Positions 3,671 through 33,702 of a DNA stretch of 64,000 bases are shown in pieces (within the stretch, counting starts at the first letter, position 1; each line of letters begins with the position of its first letter). Under the pieces are notes generated by a model, which worked only from the letters and a program-made list of their open reading frames with translations, was not told the DNA's origin and did not search any database. The DNA is from Escherichia coli (lineage in GTDB: Bacteria; Pseudomonadota; Gammaproteobacteria; Enterobacterales; Enterobacteriaceae). Position numbers and translations under genes: made by a program. The DNA lies in the NCBI RefSeq assembly GCF_003018255.1, contig NZ_CP027440.1; one strand, 5' to 3'.

Positions 3671-3680
3671 GGATAACATC

Positions 3681-7222: not shown

Positions 7223-7238
7223 TGGCACACTTATTGTT
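7223..7238 (+). promoter_or_regulatory. candidate sigma-54 -24/-12 promoter upstream of ygeW
   Basis: TGGCACacttaTTGTT: exact -24 TGGCAC, correct spacing, -12 TTGT instead of TTGC; about 90 nt upstream of the ygeW ATG. Confidence 0.35.
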
Positions 7239-8519: not shown

Positions 8520-8525
8520 CCCCTC

Positions 8526-8547
8526 GGGCCGATCAGCTGGTCGGCCC
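8526..8547 (+). terminator. hairpin downstream of ygeW (weak terminator or mRNA stabiliser)
   Basis: GGGCCGA-tcagctgg-TCGGCCC stem-loop right after the ygeW stop; weak T tract. Confidence 0.35.
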
Positions 8548-8576
8548 TCTATTTCCAGAGGCCAAAAGGATAGGAT

Positions 8577-9773: not shown

Positions 9774-9830
9774 TCACCCTATTGGAACTGCTCCCTGCAA
9801 AACGGGGAGTAAAAAATCTGGAGAAAAATA

Positions 9831-11042: not shown

Positions 11043-11094
11043 TTACTCTTCACTTATTCCCCTCCGGTTCGCCGGAGGGTTTTTGGAGTTTGCT

Positions 11095-12480: not shown

Positions 12481-12527
12481 CCACTGCCAGGGATCTATAC
12501 ACAATCAAGAATGATGAGTGAGGAAAA

Positions 12528-15173: not shown

Positions 15174-15944
15174 CTAATTCACAAATCTGCGCGCGATTGC
15201 AGGATGTTCTTGTATATCGCCCAGCCAGATTGCCTCTACGTCGTGTTGTTGCAGCGGTTGAAGGAGCTCGCTTTGCGCAATCGCATTCTCACATTGAGAA
15301 AAACGGTTAATGAACCAGACTCGCCGACAACCTTGCGGTACGTTTTTAAACGCCCCCTGAGGGTGGCGAACCAGCGCAACGAGATCGCTCAGTTGCAAGG
15401 TTGCATCAGGTGTTAACCCGGTAATATCAGCAAACTGCGACCAGCGATGGACATTTTCTGTGCTCACTTTCGCACCCAAAATATGTCCTCCCATCACAGC
15501 AATCACGCAGCAACTGCTTTTAGGTATGCAAGGTTCGTGCTCATCAGGCGCTTTTAACGGCATTCCACGCGAGCCATCTGCCTCAATGAGAATTACGTCA
15601 CACTCTGATCGTTGTACCAGTGCATCAATCGCTTCTGGCGTAAATCCCTGCACTTTTCCCTGGTTCGCTTTCCAGCTGTGAAAACAAAATGAAATGGGGG
15701 ATATAAAAGACGCATGAGGAAGCATGGCGGGATCACGACAGAAAACCACGGGCCAGTGAGATGTTGGCATAAACATATGTGTCGTCGTAGTGATTAATAC
15801 ACGCCTGCCGCTCGCCTGGAACAGTTCTGCCAGCCAAAAAAGCAAGCTGGTTTTCCCCCCAGCACCAACAACAGAAATCACAGTGGGACGTTTCTGCGCG
15901 CCTAAATCAATGAATAATGCCGATGGGTCAATTATACTTTTCAC
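15174..15944 (-). CDS. yqeC: putative selenium-dependent molybdenum hydroxylase accessory protein (P-loop)
   Basis: 256 aa; P-loop-like VVGAGGKTSLLFWL. Confidence 0.75.
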   Translation of the reverse strand: MKSIIDPSALFIDLGAQKRPTVISVVGAGGKTSLLFWLAELFQASGRRVLITTTTHMFMPTSHWPVVFCRDPAMLPHASFISPISFCFHSWKANQGKVQGFTPEAIDALVQRSECDVILIEADGSRGMPLKAPDEHEPCIPKSSCCVIAVMGGHILGAKVSTENVHRWSQFADITGLTPDATLQLSDLVALVRHPQGAFKNVPQGCRRVWFINRFSQCENAIAQSELLQPLQQHDVEAIWLGDIQEHPAIARRFVN

Positions 15945-16692: not shown

Positions 16693-16859
16693 GAATCACT
16701 GATTTTGAGAAAAGAGAAAAAGTGATAAATGGGCTGGCAATAATAATTTTCAGGAGTGATTTTAATTCTCATTTGGCACCTGTGAGTTCATTCACAAAAA
16801 GCCATTAAGTTTCGAGCCGCCTCACATTTTTTTATATTTCCCGCCAAACCTGGCAAGAG

Positions 16860-16875
16860 TGGTGCGATTGTTGCT
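16860..16875 (+). promoter_or_regulatory. candidate sigma-54 -24/-12 promoter upstream of ygfK
   Basis: TGGtgCGattgTTGCT: GG-N10-GC spacing with TTGC -12 element; about 75 nt upstream of the ygfK ATG. Confidence 0.35.
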
Positions 16876-16947: not shown

Positions 16948-19900
16948 ATGGGGGATATTATGCGTCCCATTCCGTTTGAGGAACTTTTGACGCGCATATT
17001 TGATGAATACCAACAACAACGCTCAATCTTTGGTATTCCCGAGCAACAGTTTTACTCACCCGTAAAAGGTAAAACTGTTAGCGTCTTCGGTGAAACCTGT
17101 GCCACTCCCGTCGGCCCTGCCGCTGGCCCGCACACGCAGCTCGCGCAAAATATTGTCACTTCCTGGCTGACTGGCGGACGCTTCATCGAACTAAAAACCG
17201 TCCAAATTCTTGACCGCCTGGAGCTGGAAAAGCCCTGTATCGATGCCGAAGACGAGTGCTTTAACACCGAATGGTCTACCGAATTTACCCTGCTTAAAGC
17301 CTGGGATGAATACCTCAAAGCCTGGTTTGCCCTGCACCTTCTCGAAGCGATGTTCCAGCCTTCTGATTCCTGTAAATCGTTCATCTTTAATATGAGCGTC
17401 GGTTACAACCTCGAAGGTATTAAGCAACCGCCGATGCAGCAGTTCATCGACAATATGATGGACGCATCTGACCATCCGAAATTCGCTCAATACCGCGATG
17501 CACTTAATAAGCTACTCCAGGATGACGCATTTTTAGCCCGCCACGGCTTACAGGAAAAACGCGAAAGCTTGCAAGCCTTACCCGCTCGCATCCCCACCAG
17601 CATGGTACAAGGGGTTACCCTCTCCACCATGCACGGCTGTCCTCCGCATGAAATCGAAGCCATTTGCCGCTACATGCTGGAAGAAAAAGGGCTCAACACC
17701 TTTGTGAAACTCAACCCGACCTTACTGGGGTACGCGCGTGTTCGTGAGATCCTCGATGTCTGCGGTTTCGGTTACATCGGCTTAAAAGAAGAGTCATTTG
17801 ATCACGACCTCAAGCTGACGCAAGCACTGGAAATGCTGGAACGCCTGATGGCACTGGCAAAAGAAAAATCACTCGGCTTTGGCGTAAAACTGACTAACAC
17901 TCTCGGCACCATTAATAACAAAGGCGCACTGCCCGGTGAAGAGATGTATATGTCAGGCCGTGCGCTGTTCCCGCTCTCCATCAACGTTGCAGCAGTTCTC
18001 TCTCGCGCCTTTGACGGCAAACTGCCCATTTCTTATTCCGGTGGTGCCAGTCAGCTGACTATCCGCGATATTTTTGATACTGGTATTCGCCCTATTACTA
18101 TGGCAACCGACCTGCTGAAACCTGGCGGCTATCTGCGCTTAAGTGCCTGCATGCGCGAGCTGGAAGGCTCAGATGCCTGGGAGCTTAACCACGTTGACGT
18201 CGAACGACTGAACAGACTGGCAGCAGACGCGTTAACCATGGAATACACCCAGAAACACTGGAAGCCAGAAGAGCGTATTGAAGTGGCTGAAGACCTGCCG
18301 CTGACCGATTGCTACGTTGCCCCCTGTGTTACTGCCTGCGCTATCAAGCAAGATATTCCGGAATACATCCGTCTGCTTGGCGAACACCGCTATGCCGACG
18401 CGCTGGAACTCATCTATCAACGCAACGCCCTGCCCGCCATTACCGGTCATATTTGCGATCACCAGTGCCAATACAACTGTACCCGCCTGGATTACGACAG
18501 TGCGCTGAATATCCGCGAACTGAAAAAAGTCGCGCTGGAAAAAGGTTGGGATGAATATAAGCAACGCTGGCACAAACCAGCCGGTTCTGGTTCACGCCAT
18601 CCGGTTGCCGTGATTGGTGCAGGTCCGGCGGGTCTGGCAGCAGGTTACTTCCTTGCCAGAGCGGGCCATCCGGTTACGCTGTTTGAACGCGAAGCCAATG
18701 CGGGCGGCGTGGTGAAAAATATCATTCCTCAGTTCCGTATTCCTGCAGAGTTAATTCAGCACGATATCGATTTTGTTGCCGCTCACGGCGTAAAATTTGA
18801 GTATGGCTGCTCACCGGATCTGACCGTTGAACAGTTAAAAAATCAGGGCTTCCACTATGTTCTGATTGCCACCGGCACTGATAAAAATAGCGGTGTGAAA
18901 CTGGCGGGCGACAACCAAAATGTCTGGAAATCACTCCCCTTCCTGCGTGAATACAACAAGGGCACAGCGCTCAAGCTGGGCAAACATGTGGTCGTTGTCG
19001 GGGCGGGTAACACGGCAATGGACTGCGCTCGTGCGGCGTTACGCGTTCCAGGCGTAGAAAAAGCAACGGTCGTTTACCGTCGTTCACTGCAAGAGATGCC
19101 AGCATGGCGCGAAGAGTATGAAGAAGCGTTGCACGACGGCGTGGAGTTCCGTTTCCTGAATAATCCGGAACGTTTCGATGCTGATGGCACCTTAACCTTG
19201 CGCGTTATGTCGCTTGGCGAACCTGATGAGAAAGGTCGTCGCCGTCCGGTTGAAACCAACGAAACAGTAACACTGCATGTAGACAGCCTGATCACCGCCA
19301 TTGGTGAACAGCAGGATACTGAAGCCCTGAATGCGATGGGCGTGCCGCTGGACAAAAACGGCTGGCCAGACGTCGACCATAATGGCGAAACGCGTCTGAG
19401 TGACGTCTTTATGATCGGCGACGTACAGCGCGGACCATCCTCCATTGTCGCTGCTGTCGGAACCGCGCGTCGGGCGACCGATGCCATCCTGAGTCGGGAA
19501 AATATCCGTTCCCACCAGAACGATAAATACTGGAATAACGTCAATCCGGCGGAAATCTATCAACGTAAAGGCGATATCTCTGTCACTCTGGTGAACAGTG
19601 ACGATCGTGACGCGTTTGTCGCGCAGGAAGCCGCTCGCTGCCTTGAATGTAACTACGTTTGCAGCAAGTGTGTGGATGTCTGCCCGAACCGCGCCAACGT
19701 ATCCATTGCGGTCCCAGGCTTCCAGAACCGTTTCCAGACGCTGCATCTCGACGCCTACTGCAACGAATGCGGCAACTGCGCCCAATTCTGCCCGTGGAAC
19801 GGTAAACCGTACAAAGACAAAATCACCGTCTTCAGCCTGTCGCAAGACTTTGATAACAGCAGCAACCCAGGCTTCCTTGTGGAAGATTGCCGGGTACGCG

Positions 19901-20046
19901 TACGTCTGAATAACCAAAGCTGGGTGTTAAACATCGACAGCGAAGGTCAGTTCAACAACGTACCACCGGAGCTGAACGATATGTGCCGCATCATTAGCCA
20001 TGTCCACCAGCATCATCATTATCTGCTGGGCCGTGTGGAGGTGTAA
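16948..20046 (+). CDS. ygfK: large Fe-S flavoprotein oxidoreductase (glutamate synthase beta-like domain plus 4Fe-4S ferredoxin domains)
   Basis: 1032 aa; dinucleotide-binding [14 protein letters not shown]; Cys clusters CLECNYVCSKCVDVCP and CNECGNCAQFCP. Confidence 0.85.
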   Translation: MGDIMRPIPFEELLTRIFDEYQQQRSIFGIPEQQFYSPVKGKTVSVFGETCATPVGPAAGPHTQLAQNIVTSWLTGGRFIELKTVQILDRLELEKPCIDAEDECFNTEWSTEFTLLKAWDEYLKAWFALHLLEAMFQPSDSCKSFIFNMSVGYNLEGIKQPPMQQFIDNMMDASDHPKFAQYRDALNKLLQDDAFLARHGLQEKRESLQALPARIPTSMVQGVTLSTMHGCPPHEIEAICRYMLEEKGLNTFVKLNPTLLGYARVREILDVCGFGYIGLKEESFDHDLKLTQALEMLERLMALAKEKSLGFGVKLTNTLGTINNKGALPGEEMYMSGRALFPLSINVAAVLSRAFDGKLPISYSGGASQLTIRDIFDTGIRPITMATDLLKPGGYLRLSACMRELEGSDAWELNHVDVERLNRLAADALTMEYTQKHWKPEERIEVAEDLPLTDCYVAPCVTACAIKQDIPEYIRLLGEHRYADALELIYQRNALPAITGHICDHQCQYNCTRLDYDSALNIRELKKVALEKGWDEYKQRWHKPAGSGSRHPVAVIGAGPAGLAAGYFLARAGHPVTLFEREANAGGVVKNIIPQFRIPAELIQHDIDFVAAHGVKFEYGCSPDLTVEQLKNQGFHYVLIATGTDKNSGVKLAGDNQNVWKSLPFLREYNKGTALKLGKHVVVVGAGNTAMDCARAALRVPGVEKATVVYRRSLQEMPAWREEYEEALHDGVEFRFLNNPERFDADGTLTLRVMSLGEPDEKGRRRPVETNETVTLHVDSLITAIGEQQDTEALNAMGVPLDKNGWPDVDHNGETRLSDVFMIGDVQRGPSSIVAAVGTARRATDAILSRENIRSHQNDKYWNNVNPAEIYQRKGDISVTLVNSDDRDAFVAQEAARCLECNYVCSKCVDVCPNRANVSIAVPGFQNRFQTLHLDAYCNECGNCAQFCPWNGKPYKDKITVFSLSQDFDNSSNPGFLVEDCRVRVRLNNQSWVLNIDSEGQFNNVPPELNDMCRIISHVHQHHHYLLGRVEV

Positions 20047-20048
20047 TC

Positions 20049-21377
20049 ATGTTGATTCTGAAGAATGTCACCGCAGTGCAGTTACACCCAGCGAAAGTGC
20101 AGGAAGGCGTTGATATCGCCATCGAAAATGATGTGATTGTCGCTATCGGCGATGCCCTGACGCAACGCTACCCCGATGCCAGCTACAAAGAGATGCATGG
20201 TCGGATTGTGATGCCAGGAATTGTCTGCTCGCACAACCATTTTTACTCGGGGCTGTCCCGCGGAATTATGGCAAACATCGCCCCCTGCCCGGATTTCATC
20301 TCAACGCTGAAAAATCTCTGGTGGCGACTCGATCGCGCCCTTGATGAAGAGTCGCTCTATTACAGCGGACTGATTTGTTCCCTGGAAGCGATTAAGGGCG
20401 GATGTACATCGGTTATCGATCACCATGCCTCTCCGGCGTATATCGACGGGTCGCTCTCCACATTGCGCAACGCATTTTTAAAAGTTGGCCTGCGCGCGAT
20501 GACCTGTTTTGAAACTACTGACCGTAACAACGGTATCAAAGAGTTGCAGGAAGGTGTAGAAGAAAACATCCGCTTCGCCCGTCAGATTGATGATGCGAAG
20601 AAAGCGGCAACTGAACCGTATCTGGTAGAGGCTCATATTGGTGCTCACGCGCCGTTTACTGTGCCGGATGCCGGTCTGGAAATGCTGCGTGAGGCCGTGA
20701 AAGCCACAGGCCGTGGTTTACATATTCACGCTGCGGAAGACCTTTACGATGTTTCCCATAGTCATCACTGGTACGGCAAAGATCTGCTGGCACGATTAGC
20801 GCAATTCGATCTCATCGACAGCAAAACGCTGGTCGCTCATGGGCTTTATCTGTCTAAAGACGACATCGCGTTGCTCAATCAGCGTGATGCATTCCTGGTG
20901 CATAACGCCCGTTCAAACATGAACAACCATGTCGGCTACAACCATCATCTTTGCGACATCCGCAATCTGGCGTTGGGTACGGACGGTATTGGTTCAGATA
21001 TGTTTGAAGAGATGAAATTTGCCTTCTTTAAACATCGCGATGCGGGTGGTCCGCTGTGGCCTGACAGCTTTGCCAAAGCTCTGGCTAACGGCAACGAACT
21101 GATGAGCCGCAACTTTGGCGCGAAATTTGGCCTTCTGGAAGCCGGTTACAAAGCCGATTTAACCATTTGCGATTACAACTCGCCGACGCCGCTGCTGGCA
21201 GACAATATCGCCGGGCATATCGCTTTCGGTATGGGCTCAGGCAGCGTTCACAGCGTGATGGTCAATGGTGTGATGGTCTATGAAGACCGTCAGTTTAACT
21301 TCGATTGCGATTCCATTTATGCGCAAGCCAGAAAAGCCGCTGCCAGTATGTGGCGTCGGATGGATGCGCTGGCATAA
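20049..21377 (+). CDS. ssnA: amidohydrolase-superfamily aminohydrolase (chlorohydrolase-like)
   Basis: 442 aa; metal-binding HxH (CSHNHF); starts 3 nt after the ygfK stop. Confidence 0.85.
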   Translation: MLILKNVTAVQLHPAKVQEGVDIAIENDVIVAIGDALTQRYPDASYKEMHGRIVMPGIVCSHNHFYSGLSRGIMANIAPCPDFISTLKNLWWRLDRALDEESLYYSGLICSLEAIKGGCTSVIDHHASPAYIDGSLSTLRNAFLKVGLRAMTCFETTDRNNGIKELQEGVEENIRFARQIDDAKKAATEPYLVEAHIGAHAPFTVPDAGLEMLREAVKATGRGLHIHAAEDLYDVSHSHHWYGKDLLARLAQFDLIDSKTLVAHGLYLSKDDIALLNQRDAFLVHNARSNMNNHVGYNHHLCDIRNLALGTDGIGSDMFEEMKFAFFKHRDAGGPLWPDSFAKALANGNELMSRNFGAKFGLLEAGYKADLTICDYNSPTPLLADNIAGHIAFGMGSGSVHSVMVNGVMVYEDRQFNFDCDSIYAQARKAAASMWRRMDALA

Positions 21378-21427
21378 ATAACAGCTCCCCTCTTCTTTCA
21401 GAGAAGAGGGGAAATTAAGGAAAGACG

Positions 21428-22207
21428 ATGATTGAACAATTTTTCAGACCCGACTCTGTCGAACAGGCGCTGGAACTGAAGCGCCGCTACCAGGATGAAG
21501 CCGTCTGGTTCGCCGGGGGCAGCAAACTCAACGCTACACCAACCCGTACCGATAAAAAGATTGCCATTTCCTTACAGGATCTGGAACTGGACTGGGTTGA
21601 CTGGGATAACGGTGCACTGCGGATTGGCGCGATGTCTCGCTTGCAAACACTGCGTGATGCGCGATTTATTCCTGCAGCACTGCGTGAAGCTCTCGGTTTT
21701 GTTTACTCACGCCATGTTCGTAATCAGTCGACCATTGGTGGTGAAATTGCCGCCCGGCAAGAAGAGTCAGTGCTGCTTCCCGTCCTGCTGGCACTGGATG
21801 CTGAACTGGTTTTTGGCAACGGCGAAACTCTGTCAATTGAGGAGTACCTGGCCTGCCCATGCGATCGCCTGCTAACCGAAATCATCATTAAAGATCCGTA
21901 TCGCACCTGTGCGACTCGCAAAATTAGCCGTTCTCAGGCAGGTTTAACCGTCGTGACGGCAGCCGTTGCAATAACAGACCACGACGGTATGCGAATTGCG
22001 CTGGATGGCGTAGCCAGTAAAGCACTGCGTCTGCACGATGTTGAAAAACAAAACCTGGAAGGTGATGCCCTTGAACAGGCTGTCGCCAACGCCATTTTCC
22101 CGCAGGAAGATTTGCGGGGCAGCGTGGCCTATAAACGCTATATCACGGGAGTTCTGGTAGCCGACCTTTATGCCGACTGCCAACAGGCTGGGGAGGAAGC
22201 CGTATGA
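21428..22207 (+). CDS. ygfM: FAD-binding molybdopterin dehydrogenase subunit-like protein
   Basis: 259 aa; CO dehydrogenase flavoprotein-like; stop overlaps xdhD start. Confidence 0.8.
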   Translation: MIEQFFRPDSVEQALELKRRYQDEAVWFAGGSKLNATPTRTDKKIAISLQDLELDWVDWDNGALRIGAMSRLQTLRDARFIPAALREALGFVYSRHVRNQSTIGGEIAARQEESVLLPVLLALDAELVFGNGETLSIEEYLACPCDRLLTEIIIKDPYRTCATRKISRSQAGLTVVTAAVAITDHDGMRIALDGVASKALRLHDVEKQNLEGDALEQAVANAIFPQEDLRGSVAYKRYITGVLVADLYADCQQAGEEAV

Positions 22208-25074
22208 TCATCCACTTTACTTTAAATGGCACGCCCCAGGAGCTAACCGTTAATCCTGGTGAAAACGTGCAAAAGCTGTTGTTTAACATGGGAATGCACT
22301 CTGTACGCAACAGCGATGATGGCTTTGGGTTTGCCGGTTCTGACGCAATTATCTTTAACGGTAATATCGTTAACGCGTCCTTGCTTATCGCCGCACAGTT
22401 AGAGAAGGCAGATATTCGTACCGCAGAATCTCTGGGCAAATGGAATGAGTTAAGTCTGGTTCAACAGGCCATGGTTGATGTTGGCGTGGTGCAGTCTGGT
22501 TATAACGATCCAGCTGCGGCTCTGATTATCACCGATCTTCTCGATCGCATCGACGCACCTACCCGCGAAGAGATCGACGACGCGCTCTCAGGTCTGTTTA
22601 GCCGCGATGCTGGCTGGCAGCAATACTATCAGGTCATTGAACTGGCGGTTGCACGTAAAAATAATCCGCAGGCCACCATTGATATCGCTCCGACTTTCCG
22701 TGACGACCTTGAAGTCATTGGCAAGCATTATCCTAAAACTGATGCCGCGAAAATGGTGCAGGCGAAACCCTGCTATGTTGAAGATCGCGTAACGGCTGAC
22801 GCCTGCGTCATTAAAATGTTACGTAGCCCACACGCTCACGCACTGATTACTCATCTGGATGTCAGCAAAGCTGAAGCCTTACCGGGCGTCGTTCACGTTA
22901 TTACTCACCTGAATTGCCCGGATATTTACTATACCCCGGGTGGTCAGAGCGCACCGGAACCGTCACCGCTTGACCGCCGAATGTTCGGCAAGAAAATGCG
23001 TCACGTCGGCGATCGCGTTGCTGCGGTCGTCGCTGAAAGTGAAGACATTGCGCTCGAAGCACTGAAGCTCATCGACGTTGAATATGAAGTGCTTAAGCCG
23101 GTAATGTCGATTGACGAGGCAATGGCGGAAGATGCGCCTGTCGTGCACGATGAACCGGTGGTGTATGTTGCTGGTGCACCAGATACTCTGGAGGAAGATA
23201 ACTGTCATGCAGCCCAGCGCGGCGAGCATATGATCATCAACTTCCCGATCGGTTCTCGCCCACGCAAAAATATCGCTGCCAGTATTCATGGTCATATTGG
23301 TGATATGGACAAAGGCTTTGCCGATGCCGATGTGATCATTGAGCGAACCTATAACTCAACGCAGGCGCAGCAGTGCCCGACTGAAACACATATCTGCTTT
23401 ACCCGTATGGACGGCGATCGTCTGGTGATCCACGCCTCCACCCAGGTACCATGGCACTTACGCCGCCAGGTCGCGCGCCTCGTGGGCATGAAACAACATA
23501 AAGTTCATGTCATTAAAGAACGTGTAGGCGGCGGTTTTGGCTCTAAACAGGACATCCTGCTGGAAGAAGTGTGCGCCTGGGCAACTTGCGTGACCGGGCG
23601 TCCGGTACTTTTCCGCTACACCCGTGAAGAAGAGTTTATTGCTAACACCTCTCGTCACGTAGCGAAAGTCACCGTCAAACTGGGCGCGAAAAAAGATGGT
23701 CGCCTGACGGCAGTGAAGATGGATTTCCGCGCCAACACTGGTCCTTACGGTAACCACTCACTCACCGTACCGTGTAACGGACCGGCGCTGTCGCTGCCGT
23801 TATATCCATGCGATAACGTCGATTTCCAGGTCACCACCTACTACAGCAACATTTGCCCAAATGGTGCTTATCAGGGTTATGGCGCACCGAAAGGTAACTT
23901 CGCTATCACCATGGCGTTAGCGGAACTGGCGGAACAATTGCAGATCGACCAACTGGAAATTATTGAACGTAATCGTGTACACGAAGGGCAGGAGTTGAAA
24001 ATTCTCGGTGCGATTGGTGAAGGTAAAGCGCCGACATCCGTTCCTTCCGCCGCCAGCTGCGCACTGGAAGAGATCCTGCGTCAGGGTCGCGAGATGATCC
24101 AATGGTCTTCACCAAAACCGCAAAATGGTGACTGGCACATCGGTCGCGGCGTCGCCATTATCATGCAGAAATCAGGGATCCCAGATATCGATCAGGCTAA
24201 CTGCATGATCAAACTGGAATCAGACGGTACCTTTATCGTTCATTCTGGCGGTGCGGATATTGGTACTGGTTTGGATACTGTGGTGACGAAACTGGCAGCA
24301 GAAGTGCTGCACTGCCCCCCGCAGGACGTGCATGTTATCTCCGGTGATACCGATCATGCGTTGTTTGATAAAGGCGCATATGCCTCGTCCGGTACTTGCT
24401 TCTCGGGTAACGCTGCGCGTTTGGCAGCGGAAAATCTGCGGGAGAAAATCCTGTTCCACGGCGCGCAAATGTTGGGTGAGCCAGTGGCAGATGTTCAACT
24501 AGCAACGCCGGGCGTCGTTCGCGGCAAGAAAGGCGAAGTTAGTTTCGGAGAGATAGCCCATAAAGGCGAAACCGGCACCGGCTTTGGTTCACTGGTGGGA
24601 ACTGGCAGTTATATCACGCCTGATTTCGCCTTCCCGTATGGCGCAAACTTCGCTGAAGTTGCCGTCAACACGCGTACGGGTGAAATCCGCCTGGATAAAT
24701 TCTACGCCTTGCTGGACTGCGGTACACCGGTCAATCCAGAGTTAGCGCTGGGACAAATCTACGGTGCCACCCTGCGTGCTATCGGCCACAGTATGAGCGA
24801 AGAGATCATTTATGACGCCGAAGGTCACCCGTTAACGCGTGATTTACGCAGTTACGGCGCACCGAAAATTGGTGACATTCCGCGTGATTTCCGCGCTGTG
24901 CTGGTGCCGAGCGACGATAAAGTCGGCCCATTCGGGGCGAAATCGATCTCGGAAATCGGTGTAAATGGCGCCGCTCCGGCGATTGCTACCGCAATTCACG
25001 ATGCCTGCGGCATCTGGTTACGCGAATGGCATTTCACACCGGAGAAAATACTCACCGCGCTGGAAAAAATATAA
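22204..25074 (+). CDS. xdhD: molybdenum hydroxylase large subunit (xanthine dehydrogenase family) with N-terminal extension
   Basis: 956 aa; Mo-pterin hydroxylase family with a Cys-poor ferredoxin-like N-terminal region. Confidence 0.85.
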   Translation: MIIHFTLNGTPQELTVNPGENVQKLLFNMGMHSVRNSDDGFGFAGSDAIIFNGNIVNASLLIAAQLEKADIRTAESLGKWNELSLVQQAMVDVGVVQSGYNDPAAALIITDLLDRIDAPTREEIDDALSGLFSRDAGWQQYYQVIELAVARKNNPQATIDIAPTFRDDLEVIGKHYPKTDAAKMVQAKPCYVEDRVTADACVIKMLRSPHAHALITHLDVSKAEALPGVVHVITHLNCPDIYYTPGGQSAPEPSPLDRRMFGKKMRHVGDRVAAVVAESEDIALEALKLIDVEYEVLKPVMSIDEAMAEDAPVVHDEPVVYVAGAPDTLEEDNCHAAQRGEHMIINFPIGSRPRKNIAASIHGHIGDMDKGFADADVIIERTYNSTQAQQCPTETHICFTRMDGDRLVIHASTQVPWHLRRQVARLVGMKQHKVHVIKERVGGGFGSKQDILLEEVCAWATCVTGRPVLFRYTREEEFIANTSRHVAKVTVKLGAKKDGRLTAVKMDFRANTGPYGNHSLTVPCNGPALSLPLYPCDNVDFQVTTYYSNICPNGAYQGYGAPKGNFAITMALAELAEQLQIDQLEIIERNRVHEGQELKILGAIGEGKAPTSVPSAASCALEEILRQGREMIQWSSPKPQNGDWHIGRGVAIIMQKSGIPDIDQANCMIKLESDGTFIVHSGGADIGTGLDTVVTKLAAEVLHCPPQDVHVISGDTDHALFDKGAYASSGTCFSGNAARLAAENLREKILFHGAQMLGEPVADVQLATPGVVRGKKGEVSFGEIAHKGETGTGFGSLVGTGSYITPDFAFPYGANFAEVAVNTRTGEIRLDKFYALLDCGTPVNPELALGQIYGATLRAIGHSMSEEIIYDAEGHPLTRDLRSYGAPKIGDIPRDFRAVLVPSDDKVGPFGAKSISEIGVNGAAPAIATAIHDACGIWLREWHFTPEKILTALEKI

Positions 25075-25083
25075 GTAATAAAT

Positions 25084-25113
25084 GGCCGCTTCGGCGGCCT
25101 GTTTCTCTGTTTG
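25084..25113 (+). terminator. intrinsic terminator after xdhD
   Basis: GGCCGC-ttcg-GCGGCC hairpin followed by TGTTTCTCTGTTT. Confidence 0.6.
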
Positions 25114-25238
25114 AACGATGACTAAATAGTGACTGCGAAAATGAGATAAGCCGTTCTCAAGGCGTCCTGCGCCCCAAATTCGTGGGAATTTATTTTACTA
25201 ATTCAGATGATCAAATTTACTTTAAAAGGAGTGAAGGG

Positions 25239-26639
25239 ATGTCTGATATAAACCATGCAGGTTCTGACCTTATATTTGAACTGGAGGATCGCCCTCCCTT
25301 TCATCAGGCTCTCGTAGGTGCCATTACCCATCTGTTGGCAATTTTCGTTCCGATGGTAACCCCCGCGTTAATCGTGGGTGCGACCTTACAGCTTTCCGCT
25401 GAAACAACTGCCTATCTTGTTTCTATGGCGATGATCGCCTCTGGTATTGGTACCTGGTTACAAGTAAACCGCTACGGCATCGTCGGTTCTGGTCTTCTCT
25501 CAATTCAGTCAGTCAATTTTTCATTTGTTACGGTCATGATTGCGCTGGGCAGCAGCATGAAAAGCGACGGTTTTCACGAAGAGTTAATCATGTCGTCGCT
25601 CCTCGGCGTCTCCTTCGTTGGCGCATTTCTGGTTGTCGGCTCTTCTTTTATCCTGCCCTATTTACGTCGGGTTATTACGCCTACCGTCAGCGGTATTGTG
25701 GTACTGATGATCGGCTTAAGCCTGATTAAAGTCGGCATTATCGATTTTGGTGGAGGATTTGCAGCCAAAAGCAGCGGTACGTTCGGCAATTACGAACATC
25801 TCGGCGTTGGTTTATTGGTTTTAATTGTGGTGATCGGCTTTAACTGCTGTCGCAGTCCGTTGCTACGCATGGGAGGGATCGCCATTGGGCTATGTGTCGG
25901 CTATATCGCATCGTTATGCCTGGGCATGGTGGATTTCAGCAGTATGCGCAATTTGCCGTTAATCACCATCCCGCATCCGTTCAAATACGGCTTTAGTTTT
26001 AGCTTCCATCAGTTCCTGGTGGTTGGCACGATTTATCTGCTTAGCGTGCTGGAAGCAGTCGGCGATATCACCGCCACGGCAATGGTTTCCCGCCGCCCCA
26101 TTCAGGGGGAAGAGTATCAGTCCCGACTGAAAGGCGGCGTGCTGGCAGATGGTCTGGTTTCTGTTATCGCCTCCGCTGTCGGTTCATTACCATTAACCAC
26201 GTTTGCGCAAAATAATGGGGTTATTCAGATGACTGGCGTCGCTTCACGTTATGTCGGGCGAACCATCGCGGTAATGCTGGTTATCCTCGGCTTATTTCCG
26301 ATGATTGGCGGCTTCTTCACGACCATTCCCTCGGCAGTTCTGGGAGGCGCAATGACGTTGATGTTTTCCATGATTGCCATCGCTGGGATTCGCATCATCA
26401 TCACCAACGGATTAAAGCGCCGAGAAACACTTATTGTCGCCACGTCTTTAGGTTTAGGGCTTGGCGTCTCCTACGATCCCGAAATTTTTAAAATATTGCC
26501 AGCCTCTATTTATGTATTAGTTGAAAACCCTATTTGTGCTGGCGGGTTAACTGCGATTTTATTAAATATTATCCTCCCTGGTGGCTACCGACAGGAAAAC
26601 GTTCTGCCTGGTATTACCTCAGCGGAAGAGATGGATTAA
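25239..26639 (+). CDS. xanQ: xanthine permease (NCS2/NAT family)
   Basis: Track ORF 25182..26639; start trimmed to MSDINHAG (466 aa); multi-span hydrophobic transporter. Confidence 0.85.
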   Translation: MSDINHAGSDLIFELEDRPPFHQALVGAITHLLAIFVPMVTPALIVGATLQLSAETTAYLVSMAMIASGIGTWLQVNRYGIVGSGLLSIQSVNFSFVTVMIALGSSMKSDGFHEELIMSSLLGVSFVGAFLVVGSSFILPYLRRVITPTVSGIVVLMIGLSLIKVGIIDFGGGFAAKSSGTFGNYEHLGVGLLVLIVVIGFNCCRSPLLRMGGIAIGLCVGYIASLCLGMVDFSSMRNLPLITIPHPFKYGFSFSFHQFLVVGTIYLLSVLEAVGDITATAMVSRRPIQGEEYQSRLKGGVLADGLVSVIASAVGSLPLTTFAQNNGVIQMTGVASRYVGRTIAVMLVILGLFPMIGGFFTTIPSAVLGGAMTLMFSMIAIAGIRIIITNGLKRRETLIVATSLGLGLGVSYDPEIFKILPASIYVLVENPICAGGLTAILLNIILPGGYRQENVLPGITSAEEMD

Positions 26640-26653
26640 CAGTAAAGGAGTCA

Positions 26654-27973
26654 ATGATGTCAGGAGAACACACGTTAAAAGCGGTACGAGGCAGTTTTAT
26701 TGATGTCACCCGTACGGTCGATAACCCGGAAGAAATTGCCTCTGCGCTGCGGTTTATTGAGGATGGTTTATTACTCATTAAACAGGGAAAAGTGGAATGG
26801 TTTGGCGAATGGGAAGACGGAAAGCATCAAATTCCTGACACCATTCGCGTGCGCGACTATCGCGGCAAACTGATAGTACCGGGCTTTGTCGATACACATA
26901 TCCATTATCCGCAAAGTGAAATGGTGGGGGCCTATGGTGAACAATTGCTGGAGTGGTTGAATAAACACACCTTCCCTACTGAACGTCGTTATGAGGATTT
27001 AGAGTACGCCCGCGAGATGTCAGCGTTCTTCATCAAGCAGCTTTTACGTAACGGAACCACCACGGCGCTGGTGTTTGGCACTGTTCATCCACAATCCGTT
27101 GATGCGCTGTTTGAAGCCGCCAGTCATATCAATATGCGTATGATTGCCGGTAAGGTGATGATGGACCGAAACGCACCGGATTATCTGCTCGACACTGCCG
27201 AAAGCAGCTATCACCAAAGCAAAGAACTGATTGAACGCTGGCACAAAAATGGTCGTCTGTTGTATGCGATTACGCCACGCTTCGCCCCTACCTCATCTCC
27301 TGAACAGATGGCGATGGCGCAACGCCTGAAAGAAGAATATCCGGATACGTGGGTACATACCCATCTCTGTGAAAACAAAGATGAAATTGCCTGGGTCAAA
27401 TCGCTTTATCCTGACCATGATGGTTATCTGGATGTTTACCATCAGTACGGTCTGACCGGTAAAAACTGTGTCTTTGCTCACTGCGTCCATCTCGAAGAAA
27501 AAGAGTGGGATCGTCTCAGCGAAACCAAATCCAGCATTGCTTTCTGTCCGACCTCCAACCTTTACCTCGGCAGCGGCTTATTCAACTTGAAAAAAGCATG
27601 GCAGAAGAAAGTCAAAGTGGGCATGGGAACGGATATCGGTGCCGGAACAACTTTTAACATGCTGCAAACGCTGAACGAAGCCTACAAGGTATTGCAATTA
27701 CAAGGCTATCGCCTCTCGGCATATGAAGCGTTTTACCTAGCCACGCTCGGCGGAGCGAAATCTCTGGGCCTTGACGATTTGATTGGCAACTTTTTACCTG
27801 GCAAAGAGGCTGATTTCGTGGTGATGGAACCCACTGCCACTCCGCTACAGCAGCTGCGCTATGACAACTCTGTTTCTTTAGTCGACAAATTGTTCGTGAT
27901 GATGACGTTGGGCGATGACCGTTCGATCTACCGCACCTACGTTGATGGTCGTCTGGTGTACGAACGCAACTAA
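26654..27973 (+). CDS. guaD: guanine deaminase
   Basis: Track ORF 26534..27973 has a spurious 40-aa extension overlapping xanQ; true start MMSGEHTLK (439 aa) preceded by AGGAG; HxH motif FVDTHIHYP. Confidence 0.9.
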   Translation: MMSGEHTLKAVRGSFIDVTRTVDNPEEIASALRFIEDGLLLIKQGKVEWFGEWEDGKHQIPDTIRVRDYRGKLIVPGFVDTHIHYPQSEMVGAYGEQLLEWLNKHTFPTERRYEDLEYAREMSAFFIKQLLRNGTTTALVFGTVHPQSVDALFEAASHINMRMIAGKVMMDRNAPDYLLDTAESSYHQSKELIERWHKNGRLLYAITPRFAPTSSPEQMAMAQRLKEEYPDTWVHTHLCENKDEIAWVKSLYPDHDGYLDVYHQYGLTGKNCVFAHCVHLEEKEWDRLSETKSSIAFCPTSNLYLGSGLFNLKKAWQKKVKVGMGTDIGAGTTFNMLQTLNEAYKVLQLQGYRLSAYEAFYLATLGGAKSLGLDDLIGNFLPGKEADFVVMEPTATPLQQLRYDNSVSLVDKLFVMMTLGDDRSIYRTYVDGRLVYERN

Positions 27974-28008
27974 TAATAAAACTTTAACATCCTCGTGAGG
28001 ACATCATT

Positions 28009-29376
28009 ATGTCTGGAGACATCCTACAAACACCGGACGCACCAAAGCCACAGGGCGCGCTGGATAATTATTTTAAAATTACCGCTCGTGGCAGTACCAT
28101 TCGTCAGGAAGTACTGGCTGGCTTAACGACCTTTCTGGCCATGGTTTATTCCGTTATCGTCGTTCCGGGAATGCTGGGCAAAGCAGGTTTTCCTCCCGCA
28201 GCTGTGTTTGTTGCCACCTGTCTGGTCGCGGGCTTCGGCTCGTTGCTGATGGGGTTATGGGCCAATTTGCCAATGGCGATTGGTTGCGCTATTTCCTTGA
28301 CGGCGTTTACCGCATTCAGTCTGGTACTCGGGCAACAAATTAGCGTTCCTGTCGCACTGGGCGCAGTCTTTCTGATGGGCGTCATCTTCACCGCTATTTC
28401 CGTAACCGGTGTGCGTACCTGGATCTTACGTAATTTGCCGATGGGGATCGCTCACGGTACAGGTATCGGTATCGGCCTGTTTCTGCTGCTGATTGCTGCT
28501 AACGGTGTGGGAATGGTTATCAAAAACCCGATTGAAGGCTTGCCAGTGGCGCTCGGTGCGTTTACCTCCTTCCCGGTGATGATGAGCTTACTGGGGCTGG
28601 CGGTCATCTTCGGTCTGGAGAAGTGTCGCGTACCCGGCGGGATCTTGTTGGTGATTATTGCAATTTCGATCATCGGCTTAATCTTTGACCCAGCGGTGAA
28701 GTACCACGGTCTGGTGGCGATGCCAAGCCTGACTGGCGAAGATGGTAAGTCTCTGATTTTCAGCCTCGATATTATGGGCGCACTCCAGCCAACTGTACTT
28801 CCGAGTGTACTGGCATTGGTGATGACCGCAGTGTTCGACGCCACTGGCACCATCCGTGCCGTCGCCGGTCAGGCGAATTTGTTGGATAAAGACAACCAGA
28901 TCATCAACGGCGGCAAAGCCCTGACCAGTGACTCAGTAAGTTCAATATTCTCCGGCCTGGTGGGCGCAGCGCCCGCGGCGGTTTATATCGAATCAGCGGC
29001 AGGAACCGCCGCCGGGGGGAAAACCGGTTTAACCGCAGCCGTTGTTGGTGCGTTGTTCCTGATGATTCTGTTTTTATCACCGTTGTCGTTTCTGATCCCC
29101 GGTTATGCTACTGCCCCCGCTCTGATGTACGTGGGTTTGCTGATGTTAAGCAACGTCTCGAAGCTGGATTTCAACGATTTTATTGACGCAATGGCTGGCC
29201 TGGTGTGTGCCGTGTTCATCGTTCTGACTTGTAATATCGTTACCGGTATTATGCTGGGCTTTGTAACATTGGTGGTGGGTCGCGTCTTTGCGCGCGAATG
29301 GCAAAAGCTGAATATTGGTACGGTGATCATTACTGCCGCACTGGTCGCGTTTTACGCGGGTGGTTGGGCAATCTAA
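28009..29376 (+). CDS. ghxQ: guanine/hypoxanthine permease (NCS2, AzgA-like)
   Basis: 455 aa; polytopic membrane protein. Confidence 0.85.
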
Positions 29377-29411: not shown

Positions 29412-29903
29412 TCACAGAGGATTCTCACCGCTGGCAACAATACGCTGCTGGCGGACTCGCCTGAGTTCTCTTTCAGTAAGCAACTGCAGCGCCTGTGTTG
29501 GGCAAGATTCAACGCAGGCTGGCCCCTCTTCCCGCTGTTCACAGAGATCGCATTTCACGATTTGTTGCCGGGTATCCCCCGGCAACGACTGAATGGTGAT
29601 CATTCCAAACGGGCACGCACTGACGCAACTCTGACAGCCAATACAACGGGCAGAATTGGTCTGCACCACCTGCTCGCCCATCGTCAGCGCCCCCACGGGG
29701 CAAGCGCTAACACAAGGGGCGTTTTCACACTGATGGCACATCACCGGCGCACTGATGCTGTCCAGTCGCTGTACCTTCAGCCGGGGTAAAAAGACATCGG
29801 CATTCAACTCCTGTTCTGAAGGGTGAGCGACCACACAGGCTACTTCACAAGTACGGCAGCCAATACAGTCAGCCGGATTAACGATAATTAACGATTTCAT
29901 CAC
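29412..29903 (-). CDS. ygfS: 4Fe-4S ferredoxin-type electron-transfer protein
   Basis: 163 aa (possibly 162 from the second Met); multiple CxxCxxCxxxCP motifs. Confidence 0.85.
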
Positions 29904-31819
29904 GATGCCTTCGTATCAAACAGAGTTAACATATCGCGCGCCGCCTGCCTTCCTGCGGCCATTGCAGTGACAACCAGATCCGCGCCATGAACAGCATCAC
30001 CACCAGCAAAGACTTTTTTCAGATGCGTCTGGGTAGGTAAATACCCGACGTCACCGGTTTGAATCAGGCCCCATTTATCGAGTTTAATTCCGCTGCCCTG
30101 CAACCACGGCATGGCATGCGCCTGGAAACCAAAGGCCATAATGAGAACATCGGCGGGCAATTCAAACTCTGAACCCGCTACCGGACGAGGACGACGGCGA
30201 CCATCCGGCCCCGGCTCACCCATGGCGGTACGAATCAGGCCCACCGCAGTTAAACGCCCATCTTCGTCACAAGCGATATATTGCGGCTGAACATTGAACT
30301 GAAACTTGACACCTTCCTCGCGCGCATTGACCACCTCTTTGCGCGAGCCCGGCATACTGACTTCATCACGACGATACGCGCAGGTCACGCTGGCGGCATT
30401 GAGGCGGATGGAAGTCCGCAAACAATCCATGGTCGTATCGCCACCGCCCAATACCACGACTCGCTTACCTTCCACATCCGTCAGCGGATACTCTTCAGAC
30501 TCCGGCAACCCCATGAGCTGGCGGGTATGGGCAGTCAGGAACGGTAGAGCCTGAATGACACCGGGCGCATCTTCATGCGGCAGATCTGCTCGCATCATCC
30601 CGTAAGTCCCCACGCCGATGAAAACTGCATCATATTCAGAAGTTAAATCGCTAAAGGTAATATCGCGGCCAATTTCACAGTTAAGATGAAAGTCGATTCC
30701 CATTGCGGTGAATATCTCTCGCCGCTGGCTTAATACCGTTTTATCGAGTTTGAAAGGAGGTATGCCAAAAGTCAGCATACCGCCAATTTCTGGATGGCGA
30801 TCAAAGACATCAACCTGAACTCCTGCGCGCGCCAAAATATCAGCACACCCTAACCCTGCAGGCCCTGCGCCAATCACCGCCACTTTTTCGATACGGGGAA
30901 CAACTTTGCTGACATCGGGACGCCAGCCCATCGCCAGCGCGGTATCGGTAATGTAGCGTTCCAGATTCCCGATAGAGACTGCGCCAGAGTGATCTTTCAA
31001 AGTACATGCGCCTTCACAAAGACGGTCCTGTGGACATACCCTGCCGCAGATTTCTGGCAAGGAACTGGTCTGGTGGCAAAGTTCTGCCGCTTCAATAATC
31101 TTTCCTTCCTGCACCAGACGGATGTAATCCGGAATAGCGTTATGCAGCGGGCAATGCCAGTTGCAGTTAGCTTTTTCGGCGCAATAAACACAGCGGTCAC
31201 TCTCATAAGTCGCTTGTTGTGGATCCAGCCCGTAATAGATTTCGCCAAAGTGGGTTTTCCGTTCACTCGCTGAAATTTTATCTGCGCCTTTACGCGAGTT
31301 AACGGGGAGCAACGCTGCACTGCGAGATGGCTGAGCGTCTGATGACGCTTTTCCTGCTGCCGTTTTGCGCTGGCGGGCCACCTTTATCTGCTGCAACCCT
31401 TTATCGTCCATCAGCCGTAACGCCTGTGTTGGGCAGACTTCAATACAGGCTTGCGTGCCGGAACTGCGCTGGTTACAAAGGTCGCATTTCTGCGCAATCG
31501 TATCGACCATCTCAACGACGCCAAAGGGGCAAGCGATTGCGCATCTTTTACAACCAATACATTTTTGCTCGTCCAGTTGTACGCTATCGGGCTGGAAAGT
31601 CAGAGCATTAACCGGACAAGCCGTAACGCAAGGGGCATTGTTGCAGTGATGGCAGGCCACCGGATTCGCAGCCTGGCCTTTCCCTACAACGTGGATACGC
31701 GGTCGAAAGTCACTGTGACTCAGCGGCCAGTTTTCTTGATTATGTGCCATCGCACAGGCAATTTCACAAGCATGACAGCCTATACATTCCGCAGCTTCAG
31801 CAGCGATAAACTTATTCAT
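29900..31819 (-). CDS. ygfT: Fe-S flavoprotein oxidoreductase (N-terminal 4Fe-4S ferredoxin domain plus glutamate synthase beta-like FAD/NAD(P) domain)
   Basis: Track ORF to 31834; start trimmed to [15 protein letters not shown] (639 aa); [14 protein letters not shown] dinucleotide-binding motif. Confidence 0.8.
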
Positions 31820-32101
31820 TTGCATCCCTTTCATTTAATGAGTTATGTCTTCTCAAATTTCGCGATGCAATAAATGGGCATGTATTAGGTAGCATGGCCG
31901 ATTTAATTATAATTTTGCGACTGAGTTCAAATTATTGCCCCTCAATCTATGCAGCTTTCATTATTTCAACATTGCCGATCAAAAGAATGCTATCCAGATA
32001 AAAACGATTAAATGCGAGAGTGCGACATGCCAGAATGATTAATGAAATATCAATATGAGAAAATTACAGATAATTCCATTGTCAGGTTCTCTTCTCATTT
32101 T

Positions 32102-32116
32102 CGTGGTTTAACCACG
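32102..32116. promoter_or_regulatory. palindrome CGTGGTT-T-AACCACG in the ygfT-uacT divergent region
   Basis: 7-bp arms with 1-nt centre, read directly from the sequence; about 140 nt upstream of the uacT start. Confidence 0.3.
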
Positions 32117-32169
32117 ATTATGTGATTACCTCCGCAATTCCTGTCTCTAACTCCCCTTCCTCGCAAAAC

Positions 32170-32185
32170 TGGCACTCCACGAGCA
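32170..32185 (+). promoter_or_regulatory. weak candidate sigma-54 -24/-12 element upstream of uacT
   Basis: TGGCACtccacgaGCA: exact -24, correct GG-N10-GC spacing, -12 lacks the TT. Confidence 0.25.
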
Positions 32186-32253
32186 TGTATTTAGACAGTT
32201 TCATGAACGTAAACGGTTGCTTTTTACTCTGGCGGGCGAAAGGAGAAACACTG

Positions 32254-33702
32254 ATGAGCGCCATAGATTCCCAACTTCCCTCATCTTCTGGGCAAGACCG
32301 CCCAACTGATGAGGTTGACCGCATATTATCACCAGGAAAGCTGATCATACTCGGTCTGCAACACGTCCTTGTCATGTACGCAGGTGCAGTCGCTGTTCCT
32401 CTTATGATTGGCGACCGACTGGGCCTCTCAAAAGAAGCTATTGCGATGCTCATTAGCTCGGATCTCTTTTGCTGCGGGATCGTCACATTATTGCAATGTA
32501 TCGGTATCGGCCGCTTTATGGGGATCCGCCTGCCGGTGATTATGTCGGTGACCTTCGCCGCTGTAACACCAATGATAGCCATTGGGATGAACCCGGATAT
32601 CGGCCTGCTGGGGATATTTGGTGCCACTATCGCCGCGGGTTTTATCACCACATTATTAGCGCCACTTATCGGTCGCTTGATGCCTTTATTCCCGCCACTG
32701 GTTACCGGTGTGGTTATTACTTCTATCGGACTTAGCATCATTCAGGTGGGTATTGACTGGGCCGCAGGAGGTAAAGGGAATCCGCAATATGGTAATCCCG
32801 TTTATTTAGGTATCTCCTTTGCCGTCTTAATTTTTATCTTGCTCATTACTCGCTATGCGAAAGGATTTATGTCCAACGTCGCCGTATTACTGGGGATTGT
32901 ATTTGGCTTTTTACTTTCGTGGATGATGAATGAAGTCAATTTATCCGGGCTACATGATGCCTCGTGGTTTGCGATTGTCACCCCGATGTCGTTTGGTATG
33001 CCGATTTTTGATCCCGTTTCCATTCTGACCATGACTGCCGTGTTAATCATCGTGTTTATCGAGTCGATGGGGATGTTCCTGGCACTGGGTGAAATAGTTG
33101 GTCGTAAACTCTCTTCACACGATATTATTCGCGGGCTGCGTGTCGATGGCGTAGGGACAATGATAGGCGGAACGTTTAACAGCTTCCCCCATACGTCATT
33201 TTCACAAAACGTTGGCCTGGTTAGCGTGACGCGCGTTCATAGCCGCTGGGTGTGTATTTCTTCGGGAATTATATTAATCCTGTTTGGCATGGTGCCAAAA
33301 ATGGCGGTGCTGGTCGCCTCCATTCCGCAATTTGTGCTGGGCGGTGCTGGGCTGGTGATGTTCGGCATGGTACTGGCGACAGGGATTCGAATTCTGTCGC
33401 GCTGTAACTACACCACCAACCGTTACAACCTCTATATTGTGGCGATCAGTCTCGGCGTTGGCATGACGCCAACGCTCTCTCACGATTTCTTTTCTAAGTT
33501 ACCGGCCGTACTGCAACCGTTGCTGCATAGCGGCATTATGCTCGCAACCCTTAGCGCCGTTGTGCTGAACGTCTTCTTTAATGGCTATCAGCATCATGCT
33601 GATCTGGTGAAGGAATCCGTCTCTGATAAAGATTTAAAAGTCAGGACAGTACGTATGTGGCTTCTGATGCGCAAGCTGAAGAAAAATGAGCATGGAGAAT
33701 AA
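32254..33702 (+). CDS. uacT: uric acid (urate) transporter, NCS2/NAT family
   Basis: Track ORF 32122..33702; start trimmed to MSAIDSQLP (482 aa) preceded by AGGAGAAA. Confidence 0.85.
   Translation: MSAIDSQLPSSSGQDRPTDEVDRILSPGKLIILGLQHVLVMYAGAVAVPLMIGDRLGLSKEAIAMLISSDLFCCGIVTLLQCIGIGRFMGIRLPVIMSVTFAAVTPMIAIGMNPDIGLLGIFGATIAAGFITTLLAPLIGRLMPLFPPLVTGVVITSIGLSIIQVGIDWAAGGKGNPQYGNPVYLGISFAVLIFILLITRYAKGFMSNVAVLLGIVFGFLLSWMMNEVNLSGLHDASWFAIVTPMSFGMPIFDPVSILTMTAVLIIVFIESMGMFLALGEIVGRKLSSHDIIRGLRVDGVGTMIGGTFNSFPHTSFSQNVGLVSVTRVHSRWVCISSGIILILFGMVPKMAVLVASIPQFVLGGAGLVMFGMVLATGIRILSRCNYTTNRYNLYIVAISLGVGMTPTLSHDFFSKLPAVLQPLLHSGIMLATLSAVVLNVFFNGYQHHADLVKESVSDKDLKVRTVRMWLLMRKLKKNEHGE

Follow-up and report, generated by a model that had tools for sequence, protein, structure and literature searches.

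A conserved, noncanonical −24/−12 element as the probable core of a σ54-dependent promoter for the urate transporter gene uacT of Escherichia coli

The sequence studied was a stretch of 64,000 nt (the window) from Escherichia coli (NCBI RefSeq assembly GCF_003018255.1, contig NZ_CP027440.1), a chromosome segment that carries the cluster for purine and uric-acid catabolism and shares ~99% identity with K-12 in the uacT region. The genes of the cluster are given below, with positions counted from the first base of the window.

1373-5035, plus strand: xdhABC (annotation)
5075-6853, minus strand: ygeV, encoding an enhancer-binding protein and presumed activator (ORF; Pfam PAS, σ54 AAA+, and Fis-type HTH [HTH_8] domains)
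7332-13460, plus strand: ygeW-dpaL-ygeY-hyuA-arcC (annotation)
Between the ygeW and ygfK operons in the cluster list: yqeBC, minus strand, and mocA (annotation)
16948-29376, plus strand: ygfK-ssnA-ygfM-xdhD-xanQ-guaD-ghxQ (annotation)
29412-31819, minus strand: ygfS-ygfT (annotation)
29900-31819, minus strand: ygfT, the gene divergent from uacT, for formate-dependent uric-acid utilization (annotation)
32254-33702, plus strand: uacT (ygfU), encoding a urate:H+ symporter (matching E. coli annotations and ORF listing)

The uacT gene is polymorphic in length, encoding 482 amino acids in the window and in K-12 and 457 in FDAARGOS_536 (L001, 32254-33627). The 75-bp difference lies inside the gene or at its end, and downstream coordinates are shifted by 75.

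Published expression data place uacT in the YgeV iModulon, a set of 13 genes that also includes ygfT, xdhABC, ygeW-ygeX-ygeY-hyuA, and ygfK-ssnA-ygfM-xdhD (PMC10602906, PMC12133099); membership of uacT in this set is correlative. Expression of ygfT is reportedly lower in a ygeV mutant, ygfT and ygfK are strongly induced by urate under anaerobic conditions, and uacT is upregulated in E. coli colonizing the mouse gut. A Crp site in the ygeV-ygeW region and glucose repression have been reported for the cluster or pathway. A search of the literature on uacT/ygfU regulation identified no promoter study, start site, or data on rpoN or ygeV dependence.

A σ54 position matrix was built from the 135 ChIP-seq sites in the 2015 table of Bonocora et al. 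(PMC4591121). The three top matches in the window were found upstream of xdhA, ygfK, and ygeW and correspond to ChIP sites OS29 to OS31, in agreement with an earlier note on this DNA, which had pointed to similar elements at three other operons of the cluster. These cores, together with the bound site upstream of ygfT, are as follows.

1301-1317, plus strand: xdhA σ54 core, CTGGCGTAAATCTTGCC (15.7 bits, best in the window; ChIP-seq OS29)
7222-7238, plus strand: ygeW σ54 core, CTGGCACACTTATTGTT (14.3 bits; ChIP-seq OS30)
16859-16875, plus strand: ygfK σ54 core, GTGGTGCGATTGTTGCT (14.5 bits; ChIP-seq OS31)
31866-31882, minus strand: ygfT σ54 site, CATGCCCATTTATTGCA (orthologous to ChIP-seq OS32 and ChIP-exo B83; predicted start, 31855)

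The ygfT core combines a good −12 (TTGCA) with a noncanonical −24, in which TG replaces GG, and scored 6.45 bits. Site OS32 scores 4.5 in the scoring of Bonocora et al. themselves, yet it was bound in ChIP-seq (PMC4591121). In nine syntenic species this core is retained as xxxGCC(C/T)-N4-TTGCA, with T or C in place of the first G of GG. Strong intragenic sense matches to the matrix were also present in xdhD (CTGGCGGAACAATTGCA; 23926-23942, plus strand; 14.0 bits) and in ssnA (CTGGCACGATTAGCGCA; 20787-20803, plus strand; 13.5 bits), and no peak was listed at their K-12 equivalents in the Bonocora supplements, a comparison made by K-12 coordinates. Matrix score and σ54 occupancy are thus only loosely related in this cluster.

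Other matches within the cluster genes were recorded. The sequence TGAGCACGAACCTTGCA (15527-15543, minus strand), inside yqeC and upstream of yqeB, is the intragenic sense site IS34 of Bonocora et al. (FAT, 7), for which those authors made promoter mutants and a YqeB-FLAG strain (PMC4591121); ChIP-exo site B81 falls at the same place (PMC9735260). The pattern TGGCAC-N7-GC occurred 11 times in the whole window against 3.4 expected, a count reached in none of 100 shuffles, and the matches were mostly intragenic, on the plus strand of the cluster genes.

The candidate uacT element lies within the 434-bp ygfT/uacT intergenic region. It was noticed as the 16-mer TGGCACtccacgaGCA (32170-32185, plus strand), and addition of the preceding C gives the 17-mer CTGGCACTCCACGAGCA. 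K-12 MG1655 carries the identical 17-mer (equivalent to ~3029312 in U00096.2 and to 3031282-98 in U00096.3). Between the ygfT site and uacT, the following elements were identified or predicted.

31916-31931, no strand assigned: second CRP-like site, TGCGA-N6-TCAAA, with its center at −68.5 relative to the ygfT start predicted above
32028-32040, no strand assigned: weaker second palindrome copy, TGCCAGAATGATT, with the core CA-GAA-TGAT, at −162 (20 bp 5′ of the main copy)
32048-32060, no strand assigned: palindrome TATCAATATGAGA, putative YgeV enhancer (UAS), at −142 relative to uacT and −199 relative to ygfT (predicted starts)
32121-32136, no strand assigned: CRP-like site on the uacT side, TGTGA-N6-CCGCA, with its center at −67.5 relative to the uacT start predicted below
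32169-32185, plus strand: candidate uacT core promoter, CTGGCAC-TCCACGA-GCA (sequence and orthologue comparison)
32195-32197 (~32196), plus strand: predicted uacT transcription start, 12 nt 3′ of the −12 C (from σ54 geometry)

The doublets GG (32171-72) and GC (32183-84) of the candidate are separated by the canonical N10, and positions −15 and −14 are G and A rather than the T and T of the consensus, so that both the correct spacing to GC and the missing TT of the −12 described in the earlier note are present in the sequence. The element is in the sense orientation, 85 bp upstream of the uacT ATG (32254). By the convention of Bonocora et al. (motif centre plus 19), the start would lie 58 nt 5′ of the ATG, implying a leader of ~58 nt. 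Distances from motif to ATG ranged from 71 to 149 bp across 13 species and are comparable with those at xdhA, ygeW, and ygfK.

As a sequence match the element is poor. Its matrix score of 5.2 bits is lower than that of all 135 ChIP-seq sites (minimum, 6.66; median, 14.5), a range under which the ChIP-verified ygfT site also falls, and orthologous uacT elements scored 4.4 to 9.4 bits on the same matrix. The candidate ranked 181st of 127,968 positions in the window, and ~0.6 equally good matches would therefore be expected per strand in the 434-bp intergenic region. Matches to TGGCAC-N5-TTGCW with at most two mismatches numbered 49 in the window against 43.7 expected. Among the 135 mapped sites, the base at −14 was T in 127 and A in 1, and G occurred at −15 in 5. 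Judged as a lone sequence match, the candidate is no better than chance; it rises above chance because of its conservation and not the quality of the match.

Conservation was assessed at uacT loci from one genome per species, together with contigs encoding more distant UacT proteins. Thirteen uacT upstream regions, 12 of them distinct, were compared, with UacT proteins 81 to 100% identical. They came from E. coli, E. albertii, Citrobacter sp. R56, Pseudocitrobacter, C. freundii M-21, Serratia oryzae, Kluyvera, Raoultella, and Pluralibacter, the remaining four being metagenomic or Logan contigs. Six syntenic intergenic regions could be aligned with a mean identity of only ~55%, yet they contained the invariant block AAAaCTGGCA-N8-GCATG. 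Across all 13 regions, motif positions 1 to 6 (CTGGCA) and 15 to 17 (GCA) and the next T were invariant, giving the pattern CTGGCA-Y-N7-GCA-T, and both doublets and their spacing were retained. Substitutions were confined to positions 7 to 14, and position 7 was C or T, as in real sites. Position 14, corresponding to −14, was A in 12 regions and C in one, and in none was it T, despite many changes in the spacer. Flanking DNA was ~55% identical or unalignable between lineages, and the leaders 3′ of the motif were unrelated. In shuffled 300-nt upstream regions, the core pattern occurred with a probability of 2e−4 to 1e−3 per species. The absence of TT at −12 is not decay; a non-T base at −14 is itself conserved. 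The −24 deviation of ygfT can in turn be viewed as the mirror image of the −12 deviation of uacT.

The element and its associated upstream sites were also retained in three regions in which uacT is not beside ygfT, those of Pluralibacter (L007), a Logan contig (L089), and an ENA contig (L088). The upstream neighbor of uacT is an OprD-like gene in Pluralibacter and a related contig, and in the ENA contig (L088, 3001-7449) uacT adjoins a ygeV homologue and ygeW. The module follows uacT rather than ygfT. No comparable element was found upstream of uacT homologues in Hafnia, Edwardsiella, Aeromonas, or betaproteobacteria (Burkholderiales), and the module therefore does not extend beyond closer enterobacterial orthologues, those with UacT at least ~78% identical. 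Upstream of the Morganella uacT homologue there is a canonical σ54 site (TTGGTCTGTATTTTGCT; 13.7 bits) together with the same palindrome. In Erwinia sp. CGal63 and a Logan contig (L085, 1-4446, and L086, 1-4437), uacT directly follows ygfK-ssnA, with gaps of 19 and 132 bp, and is the third gene of a σ54-driven ygfK-ssnA operon. The Morganella and Erwinia-type arrangements may represent other routes by which relatives place uacT under σ54 control. In Morganella psychrotolerans (L008, 925-960), a GC-rich hairpin with a T-run after it, resembling a terminator (AAAAAGCCGCATGCCGTCACGGAATGCGGCTTTTATTT), was seen directly 5′ of the canonical −24/−12, between the palindrome and the uacT core promoter. 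A Pfam scan of the ORFs adjoining uacT in Pluralibacter and Morganella was uninformative.

A CRP-like sequence, TGTGA-N6-xCxC(A/G), was present in all 13 regions, centered 40.5 to 41.5 bp 5′ of the motif start, which corresponds to −67.5 or −68.5. The 30 bp between this site and the −24 box are unconserved, though the spacing is fixed. In the window the site has two mismatches to TGTGA-N6-TCACA, and 13/13 species keep its TGTGA and, in the right half, its C-x-C; CRP-like sites with two mismatches numbered 37 in the window against 27 expected, i.e., they are individually near chance. On the ygfT side the corresponding site is centered at −67.5 in seven other syntenic species, for a total of eight species at −67.5 or −68.5. 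Similar sites are centered at −67.5 at xdhA, at −67.5 and −97.5 (a perfect match) at ygfK, and at −77.5 at ygeW. These positions differ between promoters by whole helical turns, ygeW being one turn from −67.5.

The palindrome TnTCA-N3-TGAnA was present in all 13 species examined, at −140 to −152 and, in Pluralibacter, at −176, and a second-copy block, (T/C)CA-NAA-TGATT, occurred at the same offset in most species. An exact copy of TATCAATATGAGA lies upstream of ygeW (7009), and related copies were identified upstream of xdhA (1170 and 1191, a pair spaced 21 bp) and ygfK (16678). The pattern TMTCANNNTGAKA matched 12 times in 64 kb against 4.6 expected, with 6 of the 12 matches in the four σ54 intergenic regions (2.6% of the window); the definitions of both the palindrome and the CRP-like geometry are post hoc, made after the data had been seen. 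The conserved pair at −142 and −162, common to the verified promoters of the cluster, has the character of an enhancer, and its presumptive binder would be YgeV. Because elements are paired on each side, the intergenic region is mirror-symmetric, in the order ygfT, −12/−24, CRP-like site, palindrome pair, CRP-like site, −24/−12, uacT. A perfect 15-bp palindrome, CGTGGTTTAACCACG (32103-32117), situated between the enhancer and the CRP-like site, was considered as an enhancer and rejected since it is unconserved even in E. albertii. It occurs in the window and K-12 and in no other species compared.

Two sequences in the leader region were also examined. An RNA element in the uacT leader was rejected, as no Rfam family matched except one at an E value of 0.5, and leaders are unrelated between lineages. 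The sequence ACGTAAACGGTTGCTT (32206-32221, +11 to +26 of the predicted leader) resembles a PurR operator (ACGCAAACGTTTGCGT) at 13 of 16 positions. Its conservation extends no further than Escherichia and Citrobacter sp. R56; Pseudocitrobacter and more distant species lack it.

Published σ54 maps were compared with these findings. In the K-12 ChIP-seq data the sole peak in the ygfT/uacT intergenic region is OS32, at the ygfT-proximal motif (PMC4591121). That motif, on the minus strand at window 31866-31882, precedes ygfT by 36 bp and is separated from the candidate by ~300 bp. No peak near the candidate appears in the high- or low-stringency lists, which derive from K-12 grown aerobically in M9-glycerol, a noninducing condition; the authors state that some known sites escape detection at high stringency (PMC4591121). 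In ChIP-exo data the only site in the region is B83 (3030971-85), which is the ygfT site, and the regulon list includes ygfS and ygfT without uacT (PMC9735260). In vitro gSELEX reported ygeV/ygeW and xdhB/xdhC and nothing in the ygfT/uacT intergenic region. These three K-12 data sets speak against a constitutive occupancy of the candidate by σ54. The earlier note had called the element weak and marginal by itself, which is borne out by a score under all 135 known sites and by the lack of a σ54 peak in ChIP-seq, ChIP-exo, and gSELEX. The Cappable-seq and SMRT-Cappable-seq start-site tables that were consulted contain no entry for ygfT or uacT, a blank that is uninformative because the gene was probably silent in those conditions.

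An A at −14 is compatible with σ54 binding. Site IS16, inside paaY (TTGGCATGGAAAAAGCA), is the sole site of the 135 with A at −14 (AGCA), like uacT, and was bound with a FAT (occupancy score) of 5 (PMC4591121); σ54 is therefore able to occupy an AGCA −12. Unlike the uacT element, IS16 is intragenic and without a known transcript. Since the ChIP cells were grown on glycerol, cAMP-CRP should have been active, and CRP dependence alone cannot account for the absent uacT peak. A further requirement must be assumed, such as YgeV, anaerobiosis, or removal of a silencer.

Other explanations for the conserved block were weighed. A chance match with no function would agree with the rank of 181 among 127,968 positions, a score under that of every known site, relaxed-consensus matches at chance level, and undetected binding. 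However, eleven key bases are invariant in 12 distinct lineages amid intergenic DNA that is ~55% identical or unalignable, and they stand at a fixed distance from two other conserved elements. Conservation excludes pure chance for practical purposes, and this explanation is very unlikely. If instead the σ54 holoenzyme bound here nonproductively, in a poised or competing state that modulates ygfT or occludes another promoter, uacT would be transcribed from elsewhere. Most of the 135 mapped E. coli σ54 sites are without a demonstrated transcript, and one enhancer region is common to both divergent sites, as such a role would allow. It is hard to reconcile with an element that follows uacT into new genomic contexts, remaining 71 to 149 bp upstream and in the sense orientation even where ygfT is not adjacent. 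In addition, uacT covaries with the regulon and no alternative promoter is visible, and nonproductive binding is considered decidedly improbable.

The block could also be a CRP-dependent σ70 promoter or the site of another protein, the −24/−12 likeness being coincidental, with CTGGCA, for example, serving as a −35-like hexamer (xTGxCA). CTGGCA matches TTGACA at 4/6 positions and has a conserved CRP-like site at a rigidly fixed upstream distance, glucose repression of the pathway and a Crp site in the ygeV-ygeW region have been reported, and σ54 ChIP signal is absent at the candidate. No −10-like hexamer, however, is conserved at any spacing 3′ of CTGGCA, the sequence past GCAT being unrelated between lineages, and a scan for σ70-like promoters identified none on the plus strand of the ygfT/uacT intergenic region. 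Manual σ70 readings, with CTGGCA as −35 and AAAACT or TATTTA as −10, were rejected for want of a conserved −10 and for a misfit in CRP spacing. The usual class I CRP positions are −61.5 and −72.5, and CTGGCA as −35 would put CRP at approximately −75.5, off these faces. A σ70 promoter would also leave unexplained why an invariant GCA follows GG by exactly 12 bp, and four promoters at which σ54 is proven to bind have this CRP-like spacing too. Overall, a σ70 promoter or an unrelated binding site appears unlikely.

The uacT region shares with the xdhA, ygeW, ygfK, and ygfT promoters the cluster, the iModulon, the TnTCA-N3-TGAnA palindrome, a similar distance to the start codon, and a CRP-like site whose positions (−67.5, −77.5, −97.5) put it on one helical face. 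It differs in the −12 region, where the four have TTG(C/T) and uacT has GAGCA (A at −14), and the four have σ54 ChIP peaks whereas uacT has none. The uacT element is 9 to 10 bits under those of xdhA, ygeW, and ygfK.

Back-to-back −24/−12 promoters around a central activator region, as proposed for ygfT/uacT, are known in E. coli at hycA/hypA, which share an FhlA enhancer, and at zraP/zraSR, which share a ZraR enhancer. Both pairs are adjacent divergent ChIP-seq sites (OS27/OS28 and OS38/OS39; PMC4591121). Their cores are of consensus quality (9 to 14 on the Bonocora scale), whereas ygfT has a poor −24 and uacT a poor −12, both conserved. The ygfT/uacT pair is also unlike them in that each arm has its own CRP-like site.

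The prpBCDE operon of E. coli and Salmonella has a catabolic σ54 promoter under PrpR that also needs CRP, and the proposed uacT promoter would resemble it in joining a pathway-specific enhancer-binding protein to catabolite control. We know of no description, for prpBCDE, of a fixed CRP position of −67.5 conserved over several promoters. The prpB promoter is ChIP-seq site OS01 (PMC4591121). Its core, GTGGCACACCCCTTGCT, is canonical at −12, unlike that of uacT. The Pu promoter of Pseudomonas putida and the nifH promoter of Klebsiella are weak σ54 promoters that need IHF for recruitment of polymerase. By analogy, the uacT promoter may share with them a subconsensus core, low unaided occupancy by the closed complex, and a site for a bending protein between enhancer and core. 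The helper at Pu and nifH is IHF, whereas the uacT region conserves a CRP-like site, shows no IHF consensus, and deviates specifically at −14/−15.

Taken together, the sequence at 32169-32185 is best read as the core of a YgeV/σ54-dependent uacT promoter with a conserved noncanonical −12, to which we assign a probability of roughly 70%. The observations behind this reading are the sequence itself, its pattern of conservation, its fixed geometry, and a palindrome and CRP-like site common to ChIP-verified promoters; the co-expression is taken from the literature. Judged from sequence comparison, the uacT promoter is probably an addition to the σ54 set of the cluster that published binding maps have overlooked.

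In the proposed mechanism, uacT would be transcribed from ~32196, with a leader of ~58 nt, from the core at 32169-32185, as the right arm of a divergent pair in which ygfT is the left arm and one enhancer serves both. σ54 RNA polymerase would dock with the invariant −24 sequence CTGGCAY and the −12 GC(A) as its chief contacts. YgeV would bind the tandem palindromes at 32028-32060 and reach the closed complex by DNA looping, aided by a bend from CRP, or a CRP-like protein, at the fixed −67.5, and would then open the promoter by ATP hydrolysis. The nonconsensus −12, with A or C rather than T at −14, may give a weak closed complex, which would explain the poor score, the invisibility in ChIP under noninducing conditions, and a heavy reliance on helpers.

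A more doubtful proposal, offered tentatively, is that the ygfT/uacT region holds a conserved pair of half-strength σ54 promoters with complementary defects, ygfT being without the GG and uacT without the T-tract, and each having a CRP-like site at −67.5. Such promoters could form a subclass in which the closed complex is conditional on an auxiliary protein, with CRP recruiting or positioning the holoenzyme. If so, the non-T at −14 would be kept by selection (T in 0/13 lineages versus 94% of known sites), matrix scans and ChIP under noninducing conditions would systematically miss promoters of this kind, and σ54 regulons would be larger than mapped. The deviations at the uacT −12 and the ygfT −24 could provide a natural system for studying the role of the −12 T-tract, and the pair would also allow stereospecific help from CRP to the σ54 holoenzyme to be tested.

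The uacT product is the urate importer of the anaerobic purine/uric-acid degradation cluster, which is under study as a route to controlling host urate in the gut, and probiotic strains are being engineered to carry it. If real, the promoter would offer a testable, concrete example of a σ54 promoter that functions yet is missed by three genome-wide binding maps and by matrix scanning. Urate uptake would then join the enzymes of the pathway in one YgeV/σ54 regulon under catabolite control, making that regulon complete.
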